A DNA stretch of 64,000 nucleotides from Burkholderiales bacterium (GCA_038215405.1 JBBQQX010000002.1:22094-86093); one strand, 5' to 3'. Positions 2,853-47,485 are shown, numbered from the stretch's first letter. Numbers and translations are program-made. The notes: generated by a model not told the origin, from the letters alone.

Positions 2853-3017
2853 TTTCCGGCGTCGTCGTTGGCACGTCACACGCCCATCAGGGCACCAAGG
2901 GGCGGGAAAACCCCTAAGCATTGGGTATTCCCGGCTGACCGTTCAACCTCCATTTGTTGTATTCTGTAAGGCAGCCTGACAAAAACTCTTTACCCCTGAT
3001 CACAAGGAGACATTTCC

Positions 3018-3977
3018 ATGCGTTTTATCCACAAACTCGGTCTTGCCCTGGGCCTCGGTGCCGCCATCGCCAGCAGCGCTGGCCTGGCGCAGCAACCTCA
3101 ATTTATCAGCATTCTTACCGGCGGCACCAGCGGCGTGTACTACCCGCTCGGCGTCTCCCTGTCACAGATTTTCGGCAAGGCCATGCCAGGCGCAAAGTCT
3201 TCAGTACAGGCCACCAAAGCGTCCGCAGAAAACCTCAACCTGCTCCAGGCAGGCCGCGGCGAACTCGCCTTCACCCTGGGCGATGCCCTCTCCGACGCGT
3301 GGAAGGGCAACGAAGAAGTCGGTTTCAAGGTGCCGCTGAAAAAACTGCGCGGTGTCGCCGGTATCTATTCCAACTACATCCAGATCGTCGCCAGCGCCGA
3401 CTCGGGCATCACGACCCTGGCTGACCTGAAGGGCAAACGCCTGGCCGTCGGCGCGCCGAAGTCCGGCACCGAAATCAACGCCCGCGCCATCCTCAAGGGC
3501 GCCGGAATTAGCTACAAGGATTTAGGCAAGGTCGAATACCTGCCGTTCGGCGAATCGGTTGAACTGATGAAAAATCGCCAGATAGACGCGACCCTGATCT
3601 CGGCGGGCCTTGGCGTGTCAGCCTTGCGCGACCTGGCAACATCGATAAAGATGGTTGTCGTACCGATTCCTGCCGACGTGGTGACAAAAATCAATGACCC
3701 CGCCTACATTGCCGGAACCATCCCGGCCAATACCTACGAGGGGCAGACCGCAAGCGTGACCACCGTGGCGATTGAAAACTTTATCGTTACCCATGAAGGC
3801 GTACCGACTGACACGGTCTACAAGATGACCAAGGCCATGTACGAAAACCTCGATCAGATGGTCGCTGCCCATACCGCGGCAAAAGCCATCAAGCGCGACG
3901 ATGGCCCCTTGCATATGCCTCTGCCGCTGCACCCCGGCGCCGAGAAATATTACCGCGAAGTCGGCCTGATCAAGTAA
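3018..3977 (+). CDS. TAXI-family TRAP transporter solute-binding protein
   Basis: 319 aa with a signal peptide. The TGGTSGVYYPLGVSLSQIF motif is typical of TAXI receptors. SD AAGGAGA lies 7 nt upstream. Confidence 0.85.
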   Translation: MRFIHKLGLALGLGAAIASSAGLAQQPQFISILTGGTSGVYYPLGVSLSQIFGKAMPGAKSSVQATKASAENLNLLQAGRGELAFTLGDALSDAWKGNEEVGFKVPLKKLRGVAGIYSNYIQIVASADSGITTLADLKGKRLAVGAPKSGTEINARAILKGAGISYKDLGKVEYLPFGESVELMKNRQIDATLISAGLGVSALRDLATSIKMVVVPIPADVVTKINDPAYIAGTIPANTYEGQTASVTTVAIENFIVTHEGVPTDTVYKMTKAMYENLDQMVAAHTAAKAIKRDDGPLHMPLPLHPGAEKYYREVGLIK

Positions 3978-4036
3978 GCGATTGGCCGTGATCGTCTTCG
4001 AGCCGTTCTGGCCAATCGCCACAGCGGCCTTTTTTT
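3978..4036 (+). terminator. Intercistronic hairpin plus T-run after the TAXI receptor gene (attenuator or partial terminator)
   Basis: GCGATTGGCC (3978-3987) pairs with GGCCAATCGC (4010-4019). A run of 7 T follows at 4030-4036. Confidence 0.35.
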
Positions 4037-40810: not shown

Positions 40811-40824
40811 TTGCGTTTTCTCAA
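40811..40824. promoter_or_regulatory. Crp/Fnr/FixK-type palindrome upstream of hsp20-lon
   Basis: TTGCG-TTTT-CTCAA, 80-110 nt upstream of the hsp20 leader and start. Confidence 0.45.
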
Positions 40825-40927
40825 GCAGCCAATCGGACAGCGCTCTTACGCTTGATTGAGCTTGATCGATCGGGCGCCAGCCCAAGTACAAGGAGACCAG
40901 GCAATGAAGACGGGACAGGGCTAATCC

Positions 40928-41332
40928 ATGCGGCATCATGATCCCAGGGCTTGGATGCTGACGCAAGCGATTGACCTGCTGCACAGTGCCGACCGCTTGC
41001 AGCGCCAGTTGTTCCATATTGGCCACCTTGACGACGCGCCTTGCTGGCAACCCCCGGTCGACATGGTTGCGAACGAACATGAACTCGGCCTGCTGATCGC
41101 ACTGCCCGGGGTAGCCCCGGAGCACCTGTCGGTGAGTCTGGAGTCGCAGTGCATTGTGGTGCGCGGTAAACGCATGTTTGGCGCTAACCTGGGCACAGGC
41201 GCCATTGTCCGGCTGGAAATTCCTTATGGTCGTTTTGAGCGCCGCATTGGCTTGCCTGCCGCGACCTATCGCCTCGCTGACATGCAGTTCGAGCACGGCT
41301 GCCTGCGGCTTCATCTGGAGCAACACCCATGA
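40928..41332 (+). CDS. Hsp20/alpha-crystallin-family small heat-shock protein
   Basis: 134 aa. WQPPVDMVANEHELGLLIALPGVAPEHLSVSLESQCIVVRGKR is an ACD-like core. 4-nt overlap with lon. Confidence 0.7.
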   Translation: MRHHDPRAWMLTQAIDLLHSADRLQRQLFHIGHLDDAPCWQPPVDMVANEHELGLLIALPGVAPEHLSVSLESQCIVVRGKRMFGANLGTGAIVRLEIPYGRFERRIGLPAATYRLADMQFEHGCLRLHLEQHP

Positions 41333-43722
41333 GTCAAGTCATCCACTTACCCGACAAAAGCGACCGTCCGGCTGAGGCAGACGCATTGCCGGCGTTGCCC
41401 AGCGACGCCCTGGTCATCGTGCCGGTGCGCAACATGGTGTTGTTTCCTGGTATGGTGGTGCCGATCTCGATCGGACGCGAGAGCTCGATTGCCGCCGCCC
41501 AGTACGCGGTCAAGACCGATCAGGCCGTGGGCATCCTGATGCAGAAAAGCCCGGAGGTGGAAACACCCGGTCCCGACGATTTATCGGGTGTTGGCACCAT
41601 CGCCGCCATCCTGCGCTACGTCACCACGCCGGACGGCACCCATCACATCGTGTGCCAGGGGCAGCAACGCTTTCGCGTCACCGGCTACGTGACTGGTTTC
41701 CCTTTCACCGTGGCGCGGATCGAACGCATTGACGAGATGGTCGTGCTGGATGACCGCGAAATCGAGGCGCGCTTCATGCGGCTCAAGGAGCGCGCCGTTG
41801 AGGTGCTGCAAATGATGCCGCAGGTGCCCGCCGAGATGGTGCACGCGGTACAAAGCATCGACACCCCGGCGATGCTGGCCGACCTGGTGGCGGGCTACGT
41901 GGACATCAAGGCGCCGGAGAAGCAGGAGATTCTGGAAGAAGTTGATCTGCGCCGCCGCCTGGATCGGGTGCTGGAGATGCTGGTTCACCGCATGGATGTG
42001 CTGAAACTCTCGCGTGACATTGACAGACGTACCAAGACCAGTCTGGGCCAACGTGAGCGCGAGTTTTTGTTGCGTGAGCAGTTGAAGTCAATCCAGAAAG
42101 AACTTGGCGAAGAAGGCGCCGGCAACGCCGCTGAAATCGACGACCTGCGCAAATTGATAGCGGACGCCAACATGCCCGAAGAGGTCGCCAAGCAGGCGAC
42201 CAAGGAGCTCAAGCGGCTCGAGCGCATGGCGGACGGCTCGTCCGAATACTCGATGGTGCGCACCTACCTCGATTGGCTGGTCGAACTGCCCTGGAAAGCG
42301 CCGGAGCCCGACACGATTGACGTGGCGCAGGCGCGCCAGGTGTTAGACGCCGATCATTTTGATCTGGAAAAAGTTAAAAAGCGCATTGTCGAATTTTTGG
42401 CCGTGCGCAAGCTCAAGCCCGGCGGCCACGGCCCGATCCTGTGCCTGGTCGGGCCGCCCGGCGTCGGCAAGACCTCGCTCGGGCAATCGATCGCGCGCGC
42501 GATGGGGCGCAAATTTGTGCGGGTGTCGCTCGGCGGCGTGCATGACGAGGCCGAAATCCGCGGCCACCGGCGCACCTACATCGGCGCCCTTCCCGGCAAC
42601 ATCATCCAGGCAATAAAGAAGGCTGGCACCCGCGGCTGCGTCATGATGCTGGACGAGATTGACAAGCTCGGCGGCGGCATCCAGGGCGACCCGTCGGCGG
42701 CGCTGCTGGAGGTCCTGGACCCCGAGCAAAACAACACCTTTCGCGACAATTACCTGGCCGTGCCTTATGACCTGTCCCAGGTGCTATTCATCACCACCGC
42801 CAATGTGCTCGACCCGATTCCCGGTCCGCTGCGTGACCGCATGGAGGTCTTGCACCTGTCGGGCTACACGCAAGAAGAAAAGCACGAAATCGCCCGGCGC
42901 TACCTGGTGGCGCGCCAGTTGGAAGACACCGGTCTCAAGCCCGAGCAGTTGGAGATCACCGACGCGGCACTCGCAAGCATCATCCGCGATTACACGCGCG
43001 AAGCCGGCGTGCGCAACCTGGAACGCCAGATTGGCGCAGTCTGCCGGCGCGTGGCCGTGCGCATCGCTGGAGGGGAAATAGACAGCGCACGTGTTGACGC
43101 GCCCGATCTGGATGAGGTGTTGGGCCCGGCCAAGTTCGAGAATGAAGTCGCGTTGCGCGCCGGCCTGCCGGGTGTGGCGACCGGGCTGGCCTGGACACCG
43201 GTGGGCGGGGACATTTTATTCATCGAAGCCAGCCGCATGGCGGGCACCGGGCGCCTGATCCTGACTGGGCAACTGGGCGACGTGATGAAGGAGTCGGCCC
43301 AGGCCGCGCTGACGCTGGTGAAATCACGCTCGGCCAGCTTCGGGCTTGACGCGGCCATGATGGAAAAGACCGATGTGCACATCCATGTGCCCGCGGGTGC
43401 CATCCCGAAGGACGGCCCCAGCGCGGGGGTGGCCATGTTCATTGCCCTGGCGTCCCTGTTCATGGACCGGCCGGTGCGCAGCGATGTGGCCATGACCGGC
43501 GAGATTAGCCTTCGCGGCCTGGTGTTGCCGGTCGGCGGCATCAAAGAGAAGATGTTGGCAGCGCTGGGCGCCGGCATCAAGAAGGTCTTGTTGCCCTCGC
43601 GCAATCGCAAGGACCTGGAGGAAGTGCCACTGCAGGCCCGGGAGCAACTCGAATTTGTTTATCTTGACGACATCGGGCAGGCGGTCAAGGCGGCCATTGA
43701 GGTCGCCGATCCGTCAATTTGA
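41329..43722 (+). CDS. lon: ATP-dependent Lon protease
   Basis: 797 aa. LON N-domain, Walker A GPPGVGKTS, catalytic PKDGPSAGVAM. Confidence 0.95.
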   Translation: MSQVIHLPDKSDRPAEADALPALPSDALVIVPVRNMVLFPGMVVPISIGRESSIAAAQYAVKTDQAVGILMQKSPEVETPGPDDLSGVGTIAAILRYVTTPDGTHHIVCQGQQRFRVTGYVTGFPFTVARIERIDEMVVLDDREIEARFMRLKERAVEVLQMMPQVPAEMVHAVQSIDTPAMLADLVAGYVDIKAPEKQEILEEVDLRRRLDRVLEMLVHRMDVLKLSRDIDRRTKTSLGQREREFLLREQLKSIQKELGEEGAGNAAEIDDLRKLIADANMPEEVAKQATKELKRLERMADGSSEYSMVRTYLDWLVELPWKAPEPDTIDVAQARQVLDADHFDLEKVKKRIVEFLAVRKLKPGGHGPILCLVGPPGVGKTSLGQSIARAMGRKFVRVSLGGVHDEAEIRGHRRTYIGALPGNIIQAIKKAGTRGCVMMLDEIDKLGGGIQGDPSAALLEVLDPEQNNTFRDNYLAVPYDLSQVLFITTANVLDPIPGPLRDRMEVLHLSGYTQEEKHEIARRYLVARQLEDTGLKPEQLEITDAALASIIRDYTREAGVRNLERQIGAVCRRVAVRIAGGEIDSARVDAPDLDEVLGPAKFENEVALRAGLPGVATGLAWTPVGGDILFIEASRMAGTGRLILTGQLGDVMKESAQAALTLVKSRSASFGLDAAMMEKTDVHIHVPAGAIPKDGPSAGVAMFIALASLFMDRPVRSDVAMTGEISLRGLVLPVGGIKEKMLAALGAGIKKVLLPSRNRKDLEEVPLQAREQLEFVYLDDIGQAVKAAIEVADPSI

Positions 43723-43732
43723 GAATGCGCAA
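43719..43732. promoter_or_regulatory. Crp/Fnr/FixK-type palindrome upstream of the 64-aa ORF
   Basis: TTGAG-AATG-CGCAA. Overlaps the lon stop codon. Centre lies 64 nt upstream of the ATG at 43790. Confidence 0.45.
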
Positions 43733-43789
43733 GCGCCATCAGCTTGAGCGCGCTAGAGTGGACCCAAGTCACACATCAGGAGAGTCGCA

Positions 43790-43984
43790 ATGGAAAACTC
43801 ACCCTTGGGCGCCAAGTCAGACGCCGCGCTCCAGGATATCGGGGCGGCGTTGTATGAGTTGCGCGATGCGCTGATCGAGTTGTCGCTGTCGATGCGCGAC
43901 CTGCAGTTTGAAACCGACGTCGAACGGCGCCAAGCCACCGAAGCCACGGTACAGCAATTGCTGCAAAAGATCTCTTCGAACTAA
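43790..43984 (+). CDS. Small hypothetical protein (64 aa, predicted helical/coiled)
   Basis: Strong SD AGGAGA 7 nt upstream. No family recognised. Confidence 0.45.
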   Translation: MENSPLGAKSDAALQDIGAALYELRDALIELSLSMRDLQFETDVERRQATEATVQQLLQKISSN

Positions 43985-44003
43985 AGGCCCGATTGGGACC
44001 AGC

Positions 44004-44246
44004 TCAGTGGTAATGCCTCTTGCCCGCCATTTGGCCGGGCTTGAGACTGATCGCCAGACTGCGAATACCAGGCACGCGGCGCGCAGTGCGCTCGACCTGA
44101 AAACGCGTTTGCTGCGTATCAACGCTGCCACTCAAAGTCACGACGCCAGCATCCACATCCACCTCGATATCAGAGGCATTGACAGCGGGAATCGCATCAA
44201 GCAACTCCATCACGTCGGCTTTCAGTTCGGCATCGGTTCTCATCAT
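44004..44246 (-). CDS. BON-domain protein
   Basis: MMRTDAELKADVMELLDAIPAVNASDIEVDVDAGVVTLSGSVDTQQTRFQVERTARRVPGIRSL is a BON (OsmY-like) domain. ATG at 44246 is preferred over the GTG at 44285. Confidence 0.7.
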   Translation of the reverse strand: MMRTDAELKADVMELLDAIPAVNASDIEVDVDAGVVTLSGSVDTQQTRFQVERTARRVPGIRSLAISLKPGQMAGKRHYH

Positions 44247-44335
44247 GAGCTCCAGCAGTAGGCATCTTGGTTGATCGGGCGCCACGCTCTAGGGTGGTGC
44301 GCGCTTAACTTTAGACAAGGTGACGCGGTATTGAA

Positions 44336-44349
44336 TTGAGATTTCTCAA
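44336..44349. promoter_or_regulatory. Crp/Fnr/FixK-type palindrome in the divergent BON / GroEL-remnant promoter region
   Basis: Perfect palindrome TTGAG-ATTT-CTCAA. Confidence 0.45.
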
Positions 44350-44488
44350 AGCTGACGCCGCGCAGGCAGTGACGCCGACGGCGCCTGTGTACCCGGCGCC
44401 AACTGCTGCTGGTGCTTGCGATTTGTCAAGCGCCTTCTAGGCTCTGGCTTCTAGGATGGCTCGCAGGTCTTGCTAACGGGGGCTTACT

Positions 44489-45073
44489 TTGACGGCCAAG
44501 CAACTTCTTTTTCATGACGACGCCCGCGACAAGATCCGCCGCGGCGTCGAGATCGCCATCGACACCGTGGTGGCACAACTCAAACCAATGGCCAAGCCCT
44601 GTGTCAACTCGCAGGAGATTGCGCATGTGGCGTCGCTCTCGGCCAACAACGATCGCTCCATTAGCGAACTGCTCGCCAGCGCAATCGACAAGCTCGGGCG
44701 CGAGGCCGCGGTGCTTGAAGGCGCGGCGATTCTGTTGTGCGAGGGCCGCCTGAGCTCGCTCAAGGACTTGCTGCCCCTGTTAGACGAGATCGTGAAGGAA
44801 GGTAGACCCCTGTTGGTGATTGCCGAGGACCTGGACAGCGATTCGCTCGCGGCGCTGGTAATCAACACGATTCGCGGCACCCTGAAAACCCGCGCTGTCG
44901 AGGAGGGCATCGTGCCTGGCGGCGGTGTGGCACTGTTGCGCGCGCGGCGCGCCTTGCTCACGTTGACTGGCAGCACGCTCGATGAGACATCGGGCATACG
45001 CCTGATGGCGCTGGGCCCAGTGGCGGCGCAGCGCCCATGTTTTAACAACCACGCCACACGAGAACCATCATGA
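44489..45073 (+). CDS. GroEL-derived 194-aa ORF with three large in-frame internal deletions (remnant chaperonin; possibly a pseudogene)
   Basis: Segments align to E. coli GroEL as I remember it. MTAKQLLFHDDARDKIRRGVE matches about residues 1-21. IAIDTVVAQLKPMAKPCVNSQEIAHVASLSANNDRSISELLASAIDKLGREAAV matches about 118-175. LEGAAILLCEGRLSSLKDLLPLLDEIVKEGRPLLVIAEDLDSDSLAALVINTIRGTLKT matches about 214-273. RAVEEGIVPGGGVALLRA matches about 404-421. The nucleotide-binding DGTTT segment is absent. TTG start. Confidence 0.7.
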   Translation: MTAKQLLFHDDARDKIRRGVEIAIDTVVAQLKPMAKPCVNSQEIAHVASLSANNDRSISELLASAIDKLGREAAVLEGAAILLCEGRLSSLKDLLPLLDEIVKEGRPLLVIAEDLDSDSLAALVINTIRGTLKTRAVEEGIVPGGGVALLRARRALLTLTGSTLDETSGIRLMALGPVAAQRPCFNNHATREPS

Positions 45074-45528
45074 AAAAAACCTGGATTTTGATCGCCAATG
45101 CCACCCGCGCACGGGTCTTTGAGCGCCGCGCCACTGATCGCGCGCTGGTAGAGCTGGCTGATTTTGTCTATCCCGTCAAGAATCTGGTTGACGAGGCGGC
45201 GGGCGGCGACCTGACCGGTGCAGCGGGCAAGGGCCACGGCCGCACCGGCCATGCGGGCACGCAGTTTGAGCCCACCACCGAGGTCAAAGACAAAGCGCGG
45301 CTGAACTTTGCCCGCCAGTTGGCCGACTACCTCAACCAGGGCGTGAGCGAGCAGCGATGCCAGGTCTTGATGCTGATCGCCAGCAGCCCGATGCTGGGAG
45401 ACCTCAAGCCCTTGTTGAGCAGCGCTGCTGCGGGCATGCTGCAGCAAGCCGTTGCGAGCGACCTGACGCGCTACCAGCATGCCGACTTGCAGGAGCGCGT
45501 CGAGCGGGCGCTGCAACTCCCGGTCTGA
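45070..45528 (+). CDS. Host-attachment-protein-family protein
   Basis: 152 aa. MKKTWILIANATRARVFER... is the typical N-terminus of this family. ATGA overlap with the preceding ORF. Confidence 0.75.
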   Translation: MKKTWILIANATRARVFERRATDRALVELADFVYPVKNLVDEAAGGDLTGAAGKGHGRTGHAGTQFEPTTEVKDKARLNFARQLADYLNQGVSEQRCQVLMLIASSPMLGDLKPLLSSAAAGMLQQAVASDLTRYQHADLQERVERALQLPV

Positions 45529-45530
45529 TA

Positions 45531-45590
45531 GATGCTATATAAAACGTAGCTGCTAACGCTTTATACACGAGGGCTACGGGCCGGTTTGTT
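45531..45590 (+). repeat. Element A copy, intergenic (host-attachment gene / nrdJ 3' ends)
   Basis: GATGCTATATAAAACGTAGCTGCTAACGCTTTATACACGAGGGCTACGGGCCGGTTTG. Confidence 0.75.
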
Positions 45591-45596
45591 ATAAAT

Positions 45597-45614
45597 TCTC
45601 TGGCAACACCAGAG
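45597..45614 (-). terminator. Hairpin downstream of the class II RNR gene
   Basis: CTCTGG / CCAGAG perfect 6-bp stem with a 5-nt loop. An A/T-rich run follows on the minus strand. Confidence 0.35.
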
Positions 45615-45649
45615 AGGCCCGGTTGCAGCCACCCAATCAACCCATCAAG

Positions 45650-47413
45650 TCAGAGCGGGCCCAGGTGTCCCTCGCGCTCAATGGCACAGCCTTTGAGCCC
45701 CAGTTCCCATGCCTGCTGCAACACCAGGCCCACGTCCTGCTCGCTGGCACTCTTGGGAAGGTAAACGGTTGTGGCAATAGCGCCGTCCACACAGGACTGC
45801 ACCGCGGCCATCAGGTTCAACTGCTCTTCAGCGATCACGTCGGCAGCCTGCACAAAATGCTTTGGCCACGGCGCATCGGGGCCATGCAGTGCTTGGTAAT
45901 GACGGCAAGCGGCGTCCTCGACATCAAAGAATACCGCCTGCCCGTCGACGCCGCGTACCCGGCGCATGGCCCTGAAGGCACGCATCGGTTCAATGCCATT
46001 CGACACATTGTTGGCCAGCAAACTGATGGACTCTGTCGGCGCCACCGCCAGCAGGTGGCTGTTGCGAATGCCATGCTGCGCGATGGCGCCTTGCAGCGTT
46101 CGGTCAAGATCCAGCACAAAGGGGCTGGCGCCGTATTTGAGCTTGTCACACGCAGGGAAGGCGCCCTTTTCCTGCGCCAGCTCGACCGAGGTGCGGTAGG
46201 CGACGTCGCGGATGGCAACCATGATTTCGCGCGTCAGGTCGATGCTCGCCGCGCAGCCGTATCGCAGGCCCAGCATCGCCAGCATGTCGGCCAGCCCGGT
46301 CACACCCAAGCCAAGGCGCCGGGTGGCGAGGGGGCTTTTTTGCTGCGCCTTGAGCGGGAGCAGGGAGATGTCATGCACATCATCCAGAAAACGCGTGGCC
46401 ACCGCCGCCACAGCGCGCAGTCCCGCAAAGTCGACACTCGGGTGTTCACCAAAAGGCTGGTTGACGAAGCGACTCAGGTTGATCGAGCCCAGGTTGCATG
46501 CGCCCCAGGGTGGCAGTGGCACTGCCCCGTCGGGGCTGGTCACGGCCAGATGTTCGTCATACCAGAGGTTGTTGGCCCGGTTGATGCGGTCGATGAACAG
46601 CACGCCCGGATCAAAGCTGGTGTGCTGGGCCTGCAGCAGTTTTTGCCACAAGGCGCGCGCCGGCACGCGCCGGCGTACCAGGCACAACTGCGGCAGGCCG
46701 CCCGGCCACCAGACGCGCTCGCACACCTCGGCGCCGACCGGAATCGGGTGCTCGCCCAGAGGAAATACCAACGGCCACGGGCCGTCGTCTTGCAGCACCT
46801 GCATGAAGTCGTCGCTCAGCAACACCGACAGCCTGAAGTGCGACAAAGCACCCGCCTCAAGCTTGGCGTCGATGAAGGCTTCAATATCCGGGTGGTCACA
46901 GCGCAGCGTCGCCAGCATGGCGCTGCGGCGCCGGTTGCCTGACGCCAACACCGCATTGGCCGCCTGCCAGACCTCCATGAACGAAACTGGCCCGCTTGCG
47001 ACTTCGCCGCTGGCCCGTGCGGGCTCAAGCGCGGGACGCAGCGTGGAAAAGTCGATGCCGAGGGCGCCCCCGGCTTGCACACACAACATGGACTCGCGCA
47101 GTGCGTTGAAGATGCCCTGCACCGAATCCTCGATGGGCCCCAAGGCCAGGCAATTGAACAGGGTGGCCCGGCGCGACGTGCCCGCGCCTGCCAAAGTGCG
47201 CCCGCCCGGCAGAAAGCGCCAGTCACTGAGCATCGCGTAAAAACGCTCACGCCAGTCGTTCTGGTGGTGCGGCTCGGCGCCCGCCACCGCCAGCGCCACA
47301 CGCTCCCAGGTCGCCTCAACGGACGGCTCTGGCACGCTGCCCGGCTCGGCCCAAAGGTACTGCGTACGCCAGACATGCGCTGAAGCTTCGCTTTCAAAAG
47401 GGGGCCTTTGCAT
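45650..47413 (-). CDS. nrdJ: Adenosylcobalamin-dependent (class II) ribonucleotide reductase
   Basis: 587 aa. RFLPGGRTLAGAG, ATLFNCLAL (active-site Cys), GGALGIDFSTLRP. General class II RNR architecture. Confidence 0.8.
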   Translation of the reverse strand: MQRPPFESEASAHVWRTQYLWAEPGSVPEPSVEATWERVALAVAGAEPHHQNDWRERFYAMLSDWRFLPGGRTLAGAGTSRRATLFNCLALGPIEDSVQGIFNALRESMLCVQAGGALGIDFSTLRPALEPARASGEVASGPVSFMEVWQAANAVLASGNRRRSAMLATLRCDHPDIEAFIDAKLEAGALSHFRLSVLLSDDFMQVLQDDGPWPLVFPLGEHPIPVGAEVCERVWWPGGLPQLCLVRRRVPARALWQKLLQAQHTSFDPGVLFIDRINRANNLWYDEHLAVTSPDGAVPLPPWGACNLGSINLSRFVNQPFGEHPSVDFAGLRAVAAVATRFLDDVHDISLLPLKAQQKSPLATRRLGLGVTGLADMLAMLGLRYGCAASIDLTREIMVAIRDVAYRTSVELAQEKGAFPACDKLKYGASPFVLDLDRTLQGAIAQHGIRNSHLLAVAPTESISLLANNVSNGIEPMRAFRAMRRVRGVDGQAVFFDVEDAACRHYQALHGPDAPWPKHFVQAADVIAEEQLNLMAAVQSCVDGAIATTVYLPKSASEQDVGLVLQQAWELGLKGCAIEREGHLGPL

Positions 47414-47471
47414 GACGGCTCATCCTGACACTCAGATGGATTCAGAGTAGCCAAGCGCCAGCCACGGGCGC

Positions 47472-47485
47472 TTGATGATTCGCAA
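47472..47485. promoter_or_regulatory. Crp/Fnr/FixK-type palindrome upstream of nrdJ
   Basis: TTGAT-GATT-CGCAA. Centre lies 65 nt upstream of the nrdJ ATG (47413). Confidence 0.45.

Follow-up and report, generated by a model that had tools for sequence, protein, structure and literature searches.

A 194-amino-acid open reading frame (ORF) composed of pieces of the chaperonin GroEL was analyzed in a 64,000-nucleotide stretch of DNA from a Burkholderiales bacterium (GCA_038215405.1, JBBQQX010000002.1:22094-86093; this whole stretch is called the window below, and positions are counted from its first letter). The ORF (44489–45073, + strand) starts with TTG and ends with a TGA inside the ATGA at which the next gene, encoding a "host attachment" (Host_attach) protein, begins (ATG at 45070). 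We consider it probable (roughly 0.65) that this ORF is a recent remnant, or pseudogene, of an Fnr/Anr-regulated orphan groEL paralog, and that it is now the leader of the downstream gene. Judged from comparison with related loci, it would be an ordinary gene remnant that persists mainly as the carrier of a low-oxygen promoter and of start signals for its neighbor. An earlier note, made by a model from the sequence alone, had described the ORF as a GroEL skeleton with three in-frame internal deletions, still coupled to the next gene, and had offered a selected mini-protein, a leader ORF needed for coupling, or an unusually young set of deletions as explanations.

Deletions in the groEL paralog

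A phmmer search against PDB sequences matched the ORF to GroEL in four separate blocks (E = 3e-42), which, together with the full-length syntenic orthologs described below, establishes its descent from GroEL/Cpn60. For the residue map we used the best full-length proxy, paralog L004 from a Rhodoferax ferrireducens metagenome-assembled genome (MAG); blastn against the same gene resolved five collinear pieces separated by four deletions (D1–D4, Table 1), which together removed 358 of 545 codons. The blastn offset of the first segment is −44488, and the fourth segment is 93% identical at the nucleotide level to L072, the closest relative found. The coordinates, TTG start, overlapping stop, and translation given in the earlier note agree with ours. 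Its four-segment collage, lacking the DGTTT loop, most of the apical domain, and the C-terminus, likewise stands, except that homology ends near residue 444–446 and not at 460.

The three deletions that had been recognized before are in frame, and their junctions lie at short or imperfect direct repeats encoding similar peptide motifs, the microhomology that the earlier note proposed to look for. At junction 1, the crossover falls inside CG(Y)GGC(R)T(Y)GA, an imperfect repeat that encodes RGV(D/E) and RGIE on its two sides; at junction 2, the left and right flanks are identical at 11/20 positions; and at junction 3, the repeat ACC(Y)GCGCGG encodes T(C/R)A(A)V (T(C/R)AV versus TRAAV), with one Ala codon also absent. 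The deletions probably arose at such repeats by replication slippage or microhomology-mediated repair. The fourth deletion, which had been missed, is out of frame (271 nucleotides (nt), against both L004 and L072), and no clear repeat was seen at its junction in comparison with diverged proxies.

Because D4 is out of frame, the ORF passes the native groEL stop and ends at the TGA of ATGA, a TGA that is present in every homolog whose second codon starts with A. Residues 175–194 (LGPVAAQRPCFNNHATREPS) are a wrong-frame reading of native C-terminal codons, the native stop, and a 24-nt spacer. Thus, the overlap that had been described as coupling to the next gene exists, but it is a by-product of the frameshifting deletion; relatives have a 24-nt spacer instead. 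Careful alignment thereby uncovers, at junction 4, the kind of hidden frameshift that the earlier note said would count against its in-frame skeleton. In addition, the start codon is ATG at the homologous position in all relatives and TTG only in the window. The GC-rich third codon positions that had been pointed out were confirmed by measurement (third-position G+C, GC3, of 0.76 in the remnant versus 0.79 in the intact gene) and are simply an inheritance from the parent gene.

A collage of this kind could also be produced during assembly or binning, considering that the source is a metagenome-type assembly and that groEL paralogs can confuse assemblers. We consider such an artefact extremely improbable. 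The identical sequence is present at even depth in two independent Logan assemblies (L001 and L002), and zero-difference contigs were found in a third metagenome (2019, a different study). The junction microhomologies (0–9 nt) are far below assembler k-mer length, and another collage, that of L003, was independently recovered as L073.

The locus in related genomes

Using the downstream protein as the query, we collected 69 loci from species-representative genomes and 80 from metagenomes, almost all of them from Rhodoferax, Polaromonas, or other Comamonadaceae. About half have a full-length groEL paralog at the same position: a 545-residue groEL ends 24 nt before the Host_attach gene at approximately 33 of the 69 genome loci and at many metagenome loci, and no groES adjoins these full-length paralogs. 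The predicted ancestral locus in related Rhodoferax and Polaromonas is an operon of two genes, groEL and, 24 nt further on, Host_attach/baeRF-12. Against these intact syntenic orthologs, the window copy is disrupted by four deletions, one of them frameshifting, and by the change from ATG to TTG.

The closest relative found, L072 (downstream protein 90% identical), still has groEL codons 337–545 intact, so D3 and D4 are younger than the split from it. Furthermore, one metagenome with the identical remnant also holds a more abundant, ~90%-identical relative that continues into the deleted regions (for example, its contigs read "...APGFGERRK" following 44903), which indicates that the deletions in the window are recent. 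The full-length syntenic groEL, L072, the frameshift, and the raised nonsynonymous rate described below together support the young set of deletions that the earlier note had considered.

No full-length groEL was found elsewhere in the window, where the two 563-residue ORFs are an ETF-QO and an MCP. A second genome scan, with the GroEL N-terminus as the query, yielded full-length paralogs almost exclusively and added no further remnant with a linked Host_attach gene. Two copies (L181 and L185) are frameshifted and lack a Host_attach gene. Contigs with Comamonadaceae-type groEL or Host_attach loci were also seen filed under MAGs named Akkermansia muciniphila, Chitinophaga pinensis, and Bifidobacterium breve (L052, L160, L222); these are probably binning contamination in public MAGs.

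Selective constraint on the remnant

Over the 157 retained codons, the window and L004 are separated by 34.5 synonymous and 25.5 nonsynonymous changes (synonymous rate dS 0.35, nonsynonymous rate dN 0.077, and their ratio omega 0.22). Pairs of intact orthologs at the same dS and over the same codons show only 2–4 nonsynonymous changes (omega 0.02–0.04), so nonsynonymous change in the remnant is up 6–13 fold and the dN/dS estimate called for by the earlier note is elevated. When changes were polarized with 15 other full-length orthologs, the ratio of nonsynonymous to synonymous changes was 21:14 on the window branch and 5:13 on the L004 branch (Fisher p = 0.04). Omega on the window branch is ~0.5, as expected with constraint lost part-way along the branch. 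At 11 positions on which all 16 intact orthologs agree, the window is altered; three of the 11 are at junctions. By omega, by the branch ratios, and by the changes at invariant sites, purifying selection on the remnant is relaxed.

Chaperonin features of the product

The remnant scores 130 bits against TIGR02348 (cut-off 582.1; L004 protein, 769 bits) and 20.6 against PF00118 (cut-off 34.3). With residues 20–119 deleted, it has neither the nucleotide-binding loop (DGTTT, ~87–91) nor an intact N-terminal equatorial segment. In the apical (~191–376) and intermediate domains, residues 211–275 are kept and 276–406 are deleted, including the catalytic Asp398 region, leaving two thirds of the apical domain absent. 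The C-terminal equatorial half (~447–525), which makes ring contacts, was removed by D4. We infer that the remnant, having lost its ATP-binding loop, its C-terminal equatorial half, and the greater part of both the apical and the intermediate domain, is dead as a chaperonin and cannot act as one.

The 194-residue product might instead be a selected mini-protein, for instance one that works with the downstream protein or as a mini-chaperone derived from GroEL. Its frame is open from a TTG that could serve as a start (a G-run lies 8 nt before it), the apical helices within GroEL residues 211–275 are kept, and the identical sequence occurs in three metagenomes. However, the GroEL apical minichaperone that is known to fold comprises residues 191–345, of which only 211–275 are present, so a contiguous foldable apical domain is lacking. 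The C-terminal 20 residues are the outcome of a frameshift and spacer read-through, and both the 11 replacements at otherwise invariant sites and the rise in dN argue against a conserved protein. The same architecture was not found among 5.8 billion proteins, the window's own sequence excepted. Considering also that the skeletons in other lineages, described next, have no common domain beyond the first ~19 codons, we regard a selected mini-protein as very unlikely.

Independent remnants in other lineages

Further remnants were traced with the downstream gene as the anchor, a route that does not depend on ORF calls; two (L152 and L153) came from a protein search (Table 1). The internal segments that are kept differ per lineage, and only the 5′ end with the promoter and the 3′ end with the spacer are common to the promoter-keeping remnants. 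At two loci (L008 and L078), only the last 16–35 groEL codons are left. Differing segments with shared ends argue against a conserved mini-protein, an option of the earlier note that is hence not supported, and favor retained expression signals of the downstream gene. The promoter and first codons on one side, and the last codons and spacer on the other, would be kept as signals to transcribe and translate the intact downstream gene, with the remnant acting in effect as a 580-nt 5′ leader of Host_attach.

Junction microhomology in these other lineages ranges from none to ~9 nt. The L003 remnant is 97% identical to its intact relative L074 despite three large deletions, so deletions appear to accumulate fast or in bursts. 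From a first blastn comparison, L003 seemed to share D1 with the window; finer mapping gave breakpoints at codons 48/141 in L003 versus 19/120 in the window, and the two were therefore taken as independent events.

Two of these loci have features of their own. The three kept segments of L069 differ greatly in divergence from the closest intact gene, L017 (dS of 0.02, 1.8, and 0.24; L069 2212–2300), a pattern suggestive of a mosaic origin or of recombination (or gene conversion) involving a different groEL copy. L152, from a complete genome, is a 332-residue GroEL without the whole apical domain (codons ~171–379 deleted) that is annotated as a TCP-1/cpn60 chaperonin family protein, and its neighbors are BON, CBS, Hsp20, and Usp genes. 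The gene is probably a remnant whose annotation as functional is mistaken.

Codon phase and open reading frames

The earlier note had taken the preserved frame at the junctions as a sign of selection. Among 17 intact genes of this paralog (GC3 ~0.79), exact repeats spaced 90–1200 nt lie in codon phase in 61–88% of cases, rising with repeat length from 61% (k = 5) through 74% (k = 7) and 79% (k = 8) to 88% (k = 10). The same phase bias, and an excess of deletions of 3n nucleotides, has been reported in bacterial pseudogenes (Danneels et al, 2018; PMC6054270). Because short repeats in GC3-rich genes are mostly in phase, three in-frame deletions among four are unremarkable, and the argument is a weak one; D1–D3 would be in frame mainly for this mutational reason. 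A naive null with one third in phase (P ~0.001 for 8/9 deletions) was rejected as inappropriate given the 61–88% k-mer phase. When all events were counted (18 junctions tested and three further ones read from alignments), 17/21 (81%) were in phase, which is within the k-mer expectation.

Several points weigh against the plain remnant reading. A stricter null, conditioned on how similar the left and right 20 nt are at each junction, expects ~58% in phase; 16 of 18 were observed to be so versus 10.4 expected (P = 0.003), and, among the junctions traced from the downstream gene, 12 of 13 versus 7.7 (P = 0.006). Since the ancestral proxies are diverged, microhomology lengths are approximate, and junction similarity, hence the expected phase bias, is underestimated in this conditioned null. 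All six remnants upstream of an intact Host_attach gene (the window, L003, L069, L087, L120, and L153) have an ORF that is open to within 70 nt of its start, ending −70 to +19 nt from the ATG. We simulated this with deletion positions fixed and phases redrawn, requiring all six ORFs to be open to ≤100 nt from the downstream ATG; under this purely mutational model, the probability was 0.002, 0.026, and 0.12 for in-phase probabilities of 0.58, 0.75, and 0.85, respectively. Mutational bias alone may not be the whole story of the open frames. Omega on the window branch, in turn, is not 1, which fits a young pseudogene and weak residual constraint alike. Finally, a run search placed the remnant sequence in DNA metagenomes only, so the absence of function is read from sequence, as is any selection on the frame.

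These points would fit an account in which the chaperonin remnant is dead, yet its frame is kept open by selection: translation would shield the leader from Rho-dependent polarity and deliver ribosomes to the downstream gene. Alleles with early stops would be purged, leaving only deletions that hold the frame, pairs that compensate each other, and frameshifts close to the 3′ end. We consider this possible but doubtful. Besides the open frames and the excess of in-phase junctions, two lineages count in its favor: L153, which stays open through two compensating out-of-frame deletions (32 and 238 nt), and L070, the sole lineage with an early nonsense codon and frameshifts, whose downstream gene is broken too. 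In the window, wrong-phase versions of D1–D3 would stop 87–408 nt before the downstream ATG, and past D4, the one out-of-frame deletion, all three frames stop ≤67 nt from it. However, the sample is small (six lineages), L153 comes from a protein database that favors long ORFs, and the simulated probability depends strongly on the assumed phase bias. The overall 17/21 in phase agrees with the k-mer expectation, and the ATGA overlap is not conserved but unique to the window. The leader is only mildly C-rich (C/G of 1.2–1.3 over the first 230 nt), which is uninformative on Rho sites. The full version of this account, with a dispensable Fnr-regulated groEL repeatedly whittled to an in-frame skeleton and kept translatable for expression of the downstream baeRF-12/Host_attach gene, is put forward tentatively, behind the reading of the ORF as a recent groEL remnant retained mainly for its promoter and start signals.

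Promoter, predicted low-oxygen context, and downstream gene

The Fnr-type box that had been placed upstream of the ORF was located (Table 1) and is conserved in relatives. A TTG(C/A)G(A/T)TTT(G/C)TCA box occurs in most of the upstream regions of 23 relatives, including the remnants L003, L069, and L070, and the relatives' promoters are laid out as box, ~21 nt, CTAG(T/C/G)AT, ~33 nt, and ATG. A start site ~7 nt past the CTAGGAT of the window would put the center of the box near −41.5, a class II geometry. The terminator scan found no terminator-like site on the + strand within the remnant, and the remnant and Host_attach gene would be co-transcribed. An Rfam scan of 43700–45700 gave no matches, and a single sigma-70-like match (45042–45071) was disregarded, as it overlaps the ATG.

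A second box (44336–44349) probably serves the divergent BON-domain gene (44004–44285, − strand), to which it was assigned by position. Boxes of the TTGA-N6-TCAA type precede a cluster of stress genes (40811–47485), and with one mismatch allowed this motif occurs 50 times in the window versus 16.6 expected. The cluster resembles a low-oxygen (lxa-like) island, its predicted regulation being drawn from the motifs. It is also similar to Anr/Fnr/FixK-type microoxia regulons: in Bradyrhizobium, microoxia induces host attachment proteins and a groEL paralog (PMC6515984).

The "host attachment" protein has matches to both PF10116 and baeRF family 12, the latter being a relative of archaeo-eukaryotic release factor 1 with a single domain. 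The single-domain baeRF-1 families, the group of this protein, are predicted to act on the ribosome during translational shutdown (PMC6514570). The baeRF match, the ancestral chaperonin partner, and the putative shared low-oxygen promoter suggest that the protein functions in shutting down or rescuing translation, not in attachment.

Two other ORFs were seen nearby. A 64-residue ORF between the Lon and BON genes (43790–43984, +) has no Pfam match and was called as a gene in both Logan contigs (L001 515–709 and L002 510–704). A 334-residue antisense ORF (44512–45516, −) spans the remnant and Host_attach without a Pfam or family match, and was dismissed as most likely a high-GC shadow ORF.

Table 1 Features of the window and groEL remnants of other lineages (the latter with positions in their own loci).
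Feature	Position	Strand	Description
Box before Hsp20	40811–40824		TTGA-N6-TCAA type; Hsp20 (40928–41332) overlaps Lon (41329–43722) by ATGA
Fnr/Anr-type box TTGAGATTTCTCAA	44336–44349	.	Exact match to TTGA-N6-TCAA; conserved in L003 and L004
Fnr/Anr-type box TTGCGATTTGTCAA	44416–44429	+	groEL remnant/Host_attach promoter; aligned with the boxes of relatives
−10-like element CTAGGAT	44451–44457	+	CTAG(T/C/G)AT, conserved ~21 nt downstream of the box in relatives
Remnant ORF	44489–45073	+	194 codons; TTG start, TGA within ATGA
Segment 1	44489–44545	+	GroEL codons 1–19 (ORF residues 1–19); 15/19 residues identical to L004
D1 / junction 1	44539–44547	+	300 nt (100 codons), in frame; GroEL 20–119 gone, including the ATP-binding DGTTT loop
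Segment 2	44546–44700	+	GroEL codons 120–170 (ORF residues 20–70); 38/51 residues identical to L004; nucleotide identity 87%
D2 / junction 2	44697–44706	+	117 nt (39 codons), in frame; GroEL ~172–210 gone
Segment 3	44701–44896	+	GroEL codons 211–275 (ORF residues 72–136), part of apical domain; 56/65 residues identical to L004
D3 / junction 3	44888–44903	+	387–390 nt, in frame; GroEL ~276–406 gone
Segment 4	44897–45011	+	GroEL codons 407–444 (ORF residues 137–174); 36/38 residues identical to L004
D4 / junction 4	45011–45017	+	271 nt, out of frame; GroEL ~446–536 gone
Last nine native groEL codons and native stop	45016–45045	+	Now out of frame; TAA at 45043–45045; native frame PSGGAAPMF* versus DPGGGAAPMF* in L004
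groEL/Host_attach spacer	45046–45069	+	24 nt, conserved in alignment, with Shine-Dalgarno-like GAGAA; 24-nt gap in most full-length loci
Host_attach / baeRF family 12 gene	45070–45528	+	Intact, 152 residues; PF10116 full length (E = 1.9e-29), PF18856 (E = 7.7e-21)
Box before class II ribonucleotide reductase	47472–47485		Ribonucleotide reductase at 45650–47413, − strand
L003 = L073	L003 3858–4499		Deletions of 285, 741, and 120 nt, all in frame; native ATG to native stop
L069	2025–2411		Deletions of 192 and 1059 nt; native ATG to native stop
L070			Deletion of 1293 nt, early nonsense codon, and frameshifts; ORF broken, downstream gene broken too
L087 = L086	L087 1635–2933		Deletions of 168 and 123 nt, with a 2-nt indel close to the end; frame open until 70 nt short of downstream ATG
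L120	27–476		Deletions of 21 and 1164 nt; native ATG to native stop
L152 (Hydrogenophaga sp. BPS33, CP044549.1)	3001–3999		One 636-nt in-frame deletion; no Host_attach gene downstream
L153	401–1084		Six deletions, including a compensating out-of-frame pair (32 and 238 nt); upstream of intact Host_attach

Implications and comparison with known systems

For annotation, the proper label for the ORF is groEL pseudogene or remnant, and naming it a chaperonin or a novel small protein would be wrong; comparable remnants carry chaperonin names in databases, the Hydrogenophaga sp. BPS33 protein being one example. More generally, an open, in-frame, GC3-rich ORF in a high-GC genome is not evidence of selection, as microhomology-mediated deletions in such genes are in phase 60–90% of the time. 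The six open frames out of six before an intact downstream gene nevertheless provide a testable model of anti-polarity selection on a dead gene; if true, it would mean that a dead gene has been preserved, repeatedly and in nature, for its reading frame alone.

Compared with orphan groEL paralogs without an adjacent groES (TIGR02348/PF00118), the remnant is homologous in four blocks, with L004 as the ancestor-type full-length form. Unlike functional GroEL/Cpn60, ~66% of the protein is gone and the C-terminal tail is frameshifted. The pseudogenes of Danneels et al (2018; PMC6054270) share the repeat-flanked deletions, the excess of 3n sizes, and the in-phase microhomologies. However, those are mainly small indels in reductive symbiont genomes, whereas here the deletions are 21–1293 nt long, number 2–6 per gene, and recur independently in free-living Comamonadaceae, with the remnants wedged between a kept promoter and a kept downstream gene. 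As in translationally coupled ATGA genes and anti-polarity translated leaders, the stop overlaps the next start and the upstream ORF covers the leader; unlike in those systems, the overlap in the window arose from a frameshifting deletion, relatives having the spacer. Finally, the boxed stress genes of the window (Hsp20/alpha-crystallin with Lon, the BON-domain gene, the groEL remnant with Host_attach, and the class II ribonucleotide reductase) are comparable to the lxa locus of Burkholderia cenocepacia, where a TGA-N6-TCA motif is found along with an alpha-crystallin and a class II ribonucleotide reductase (PMC3721108). That locus differs in organism and gene order, and no groEL/Host_attach pair is described in the lxa paper (PMC3721108).

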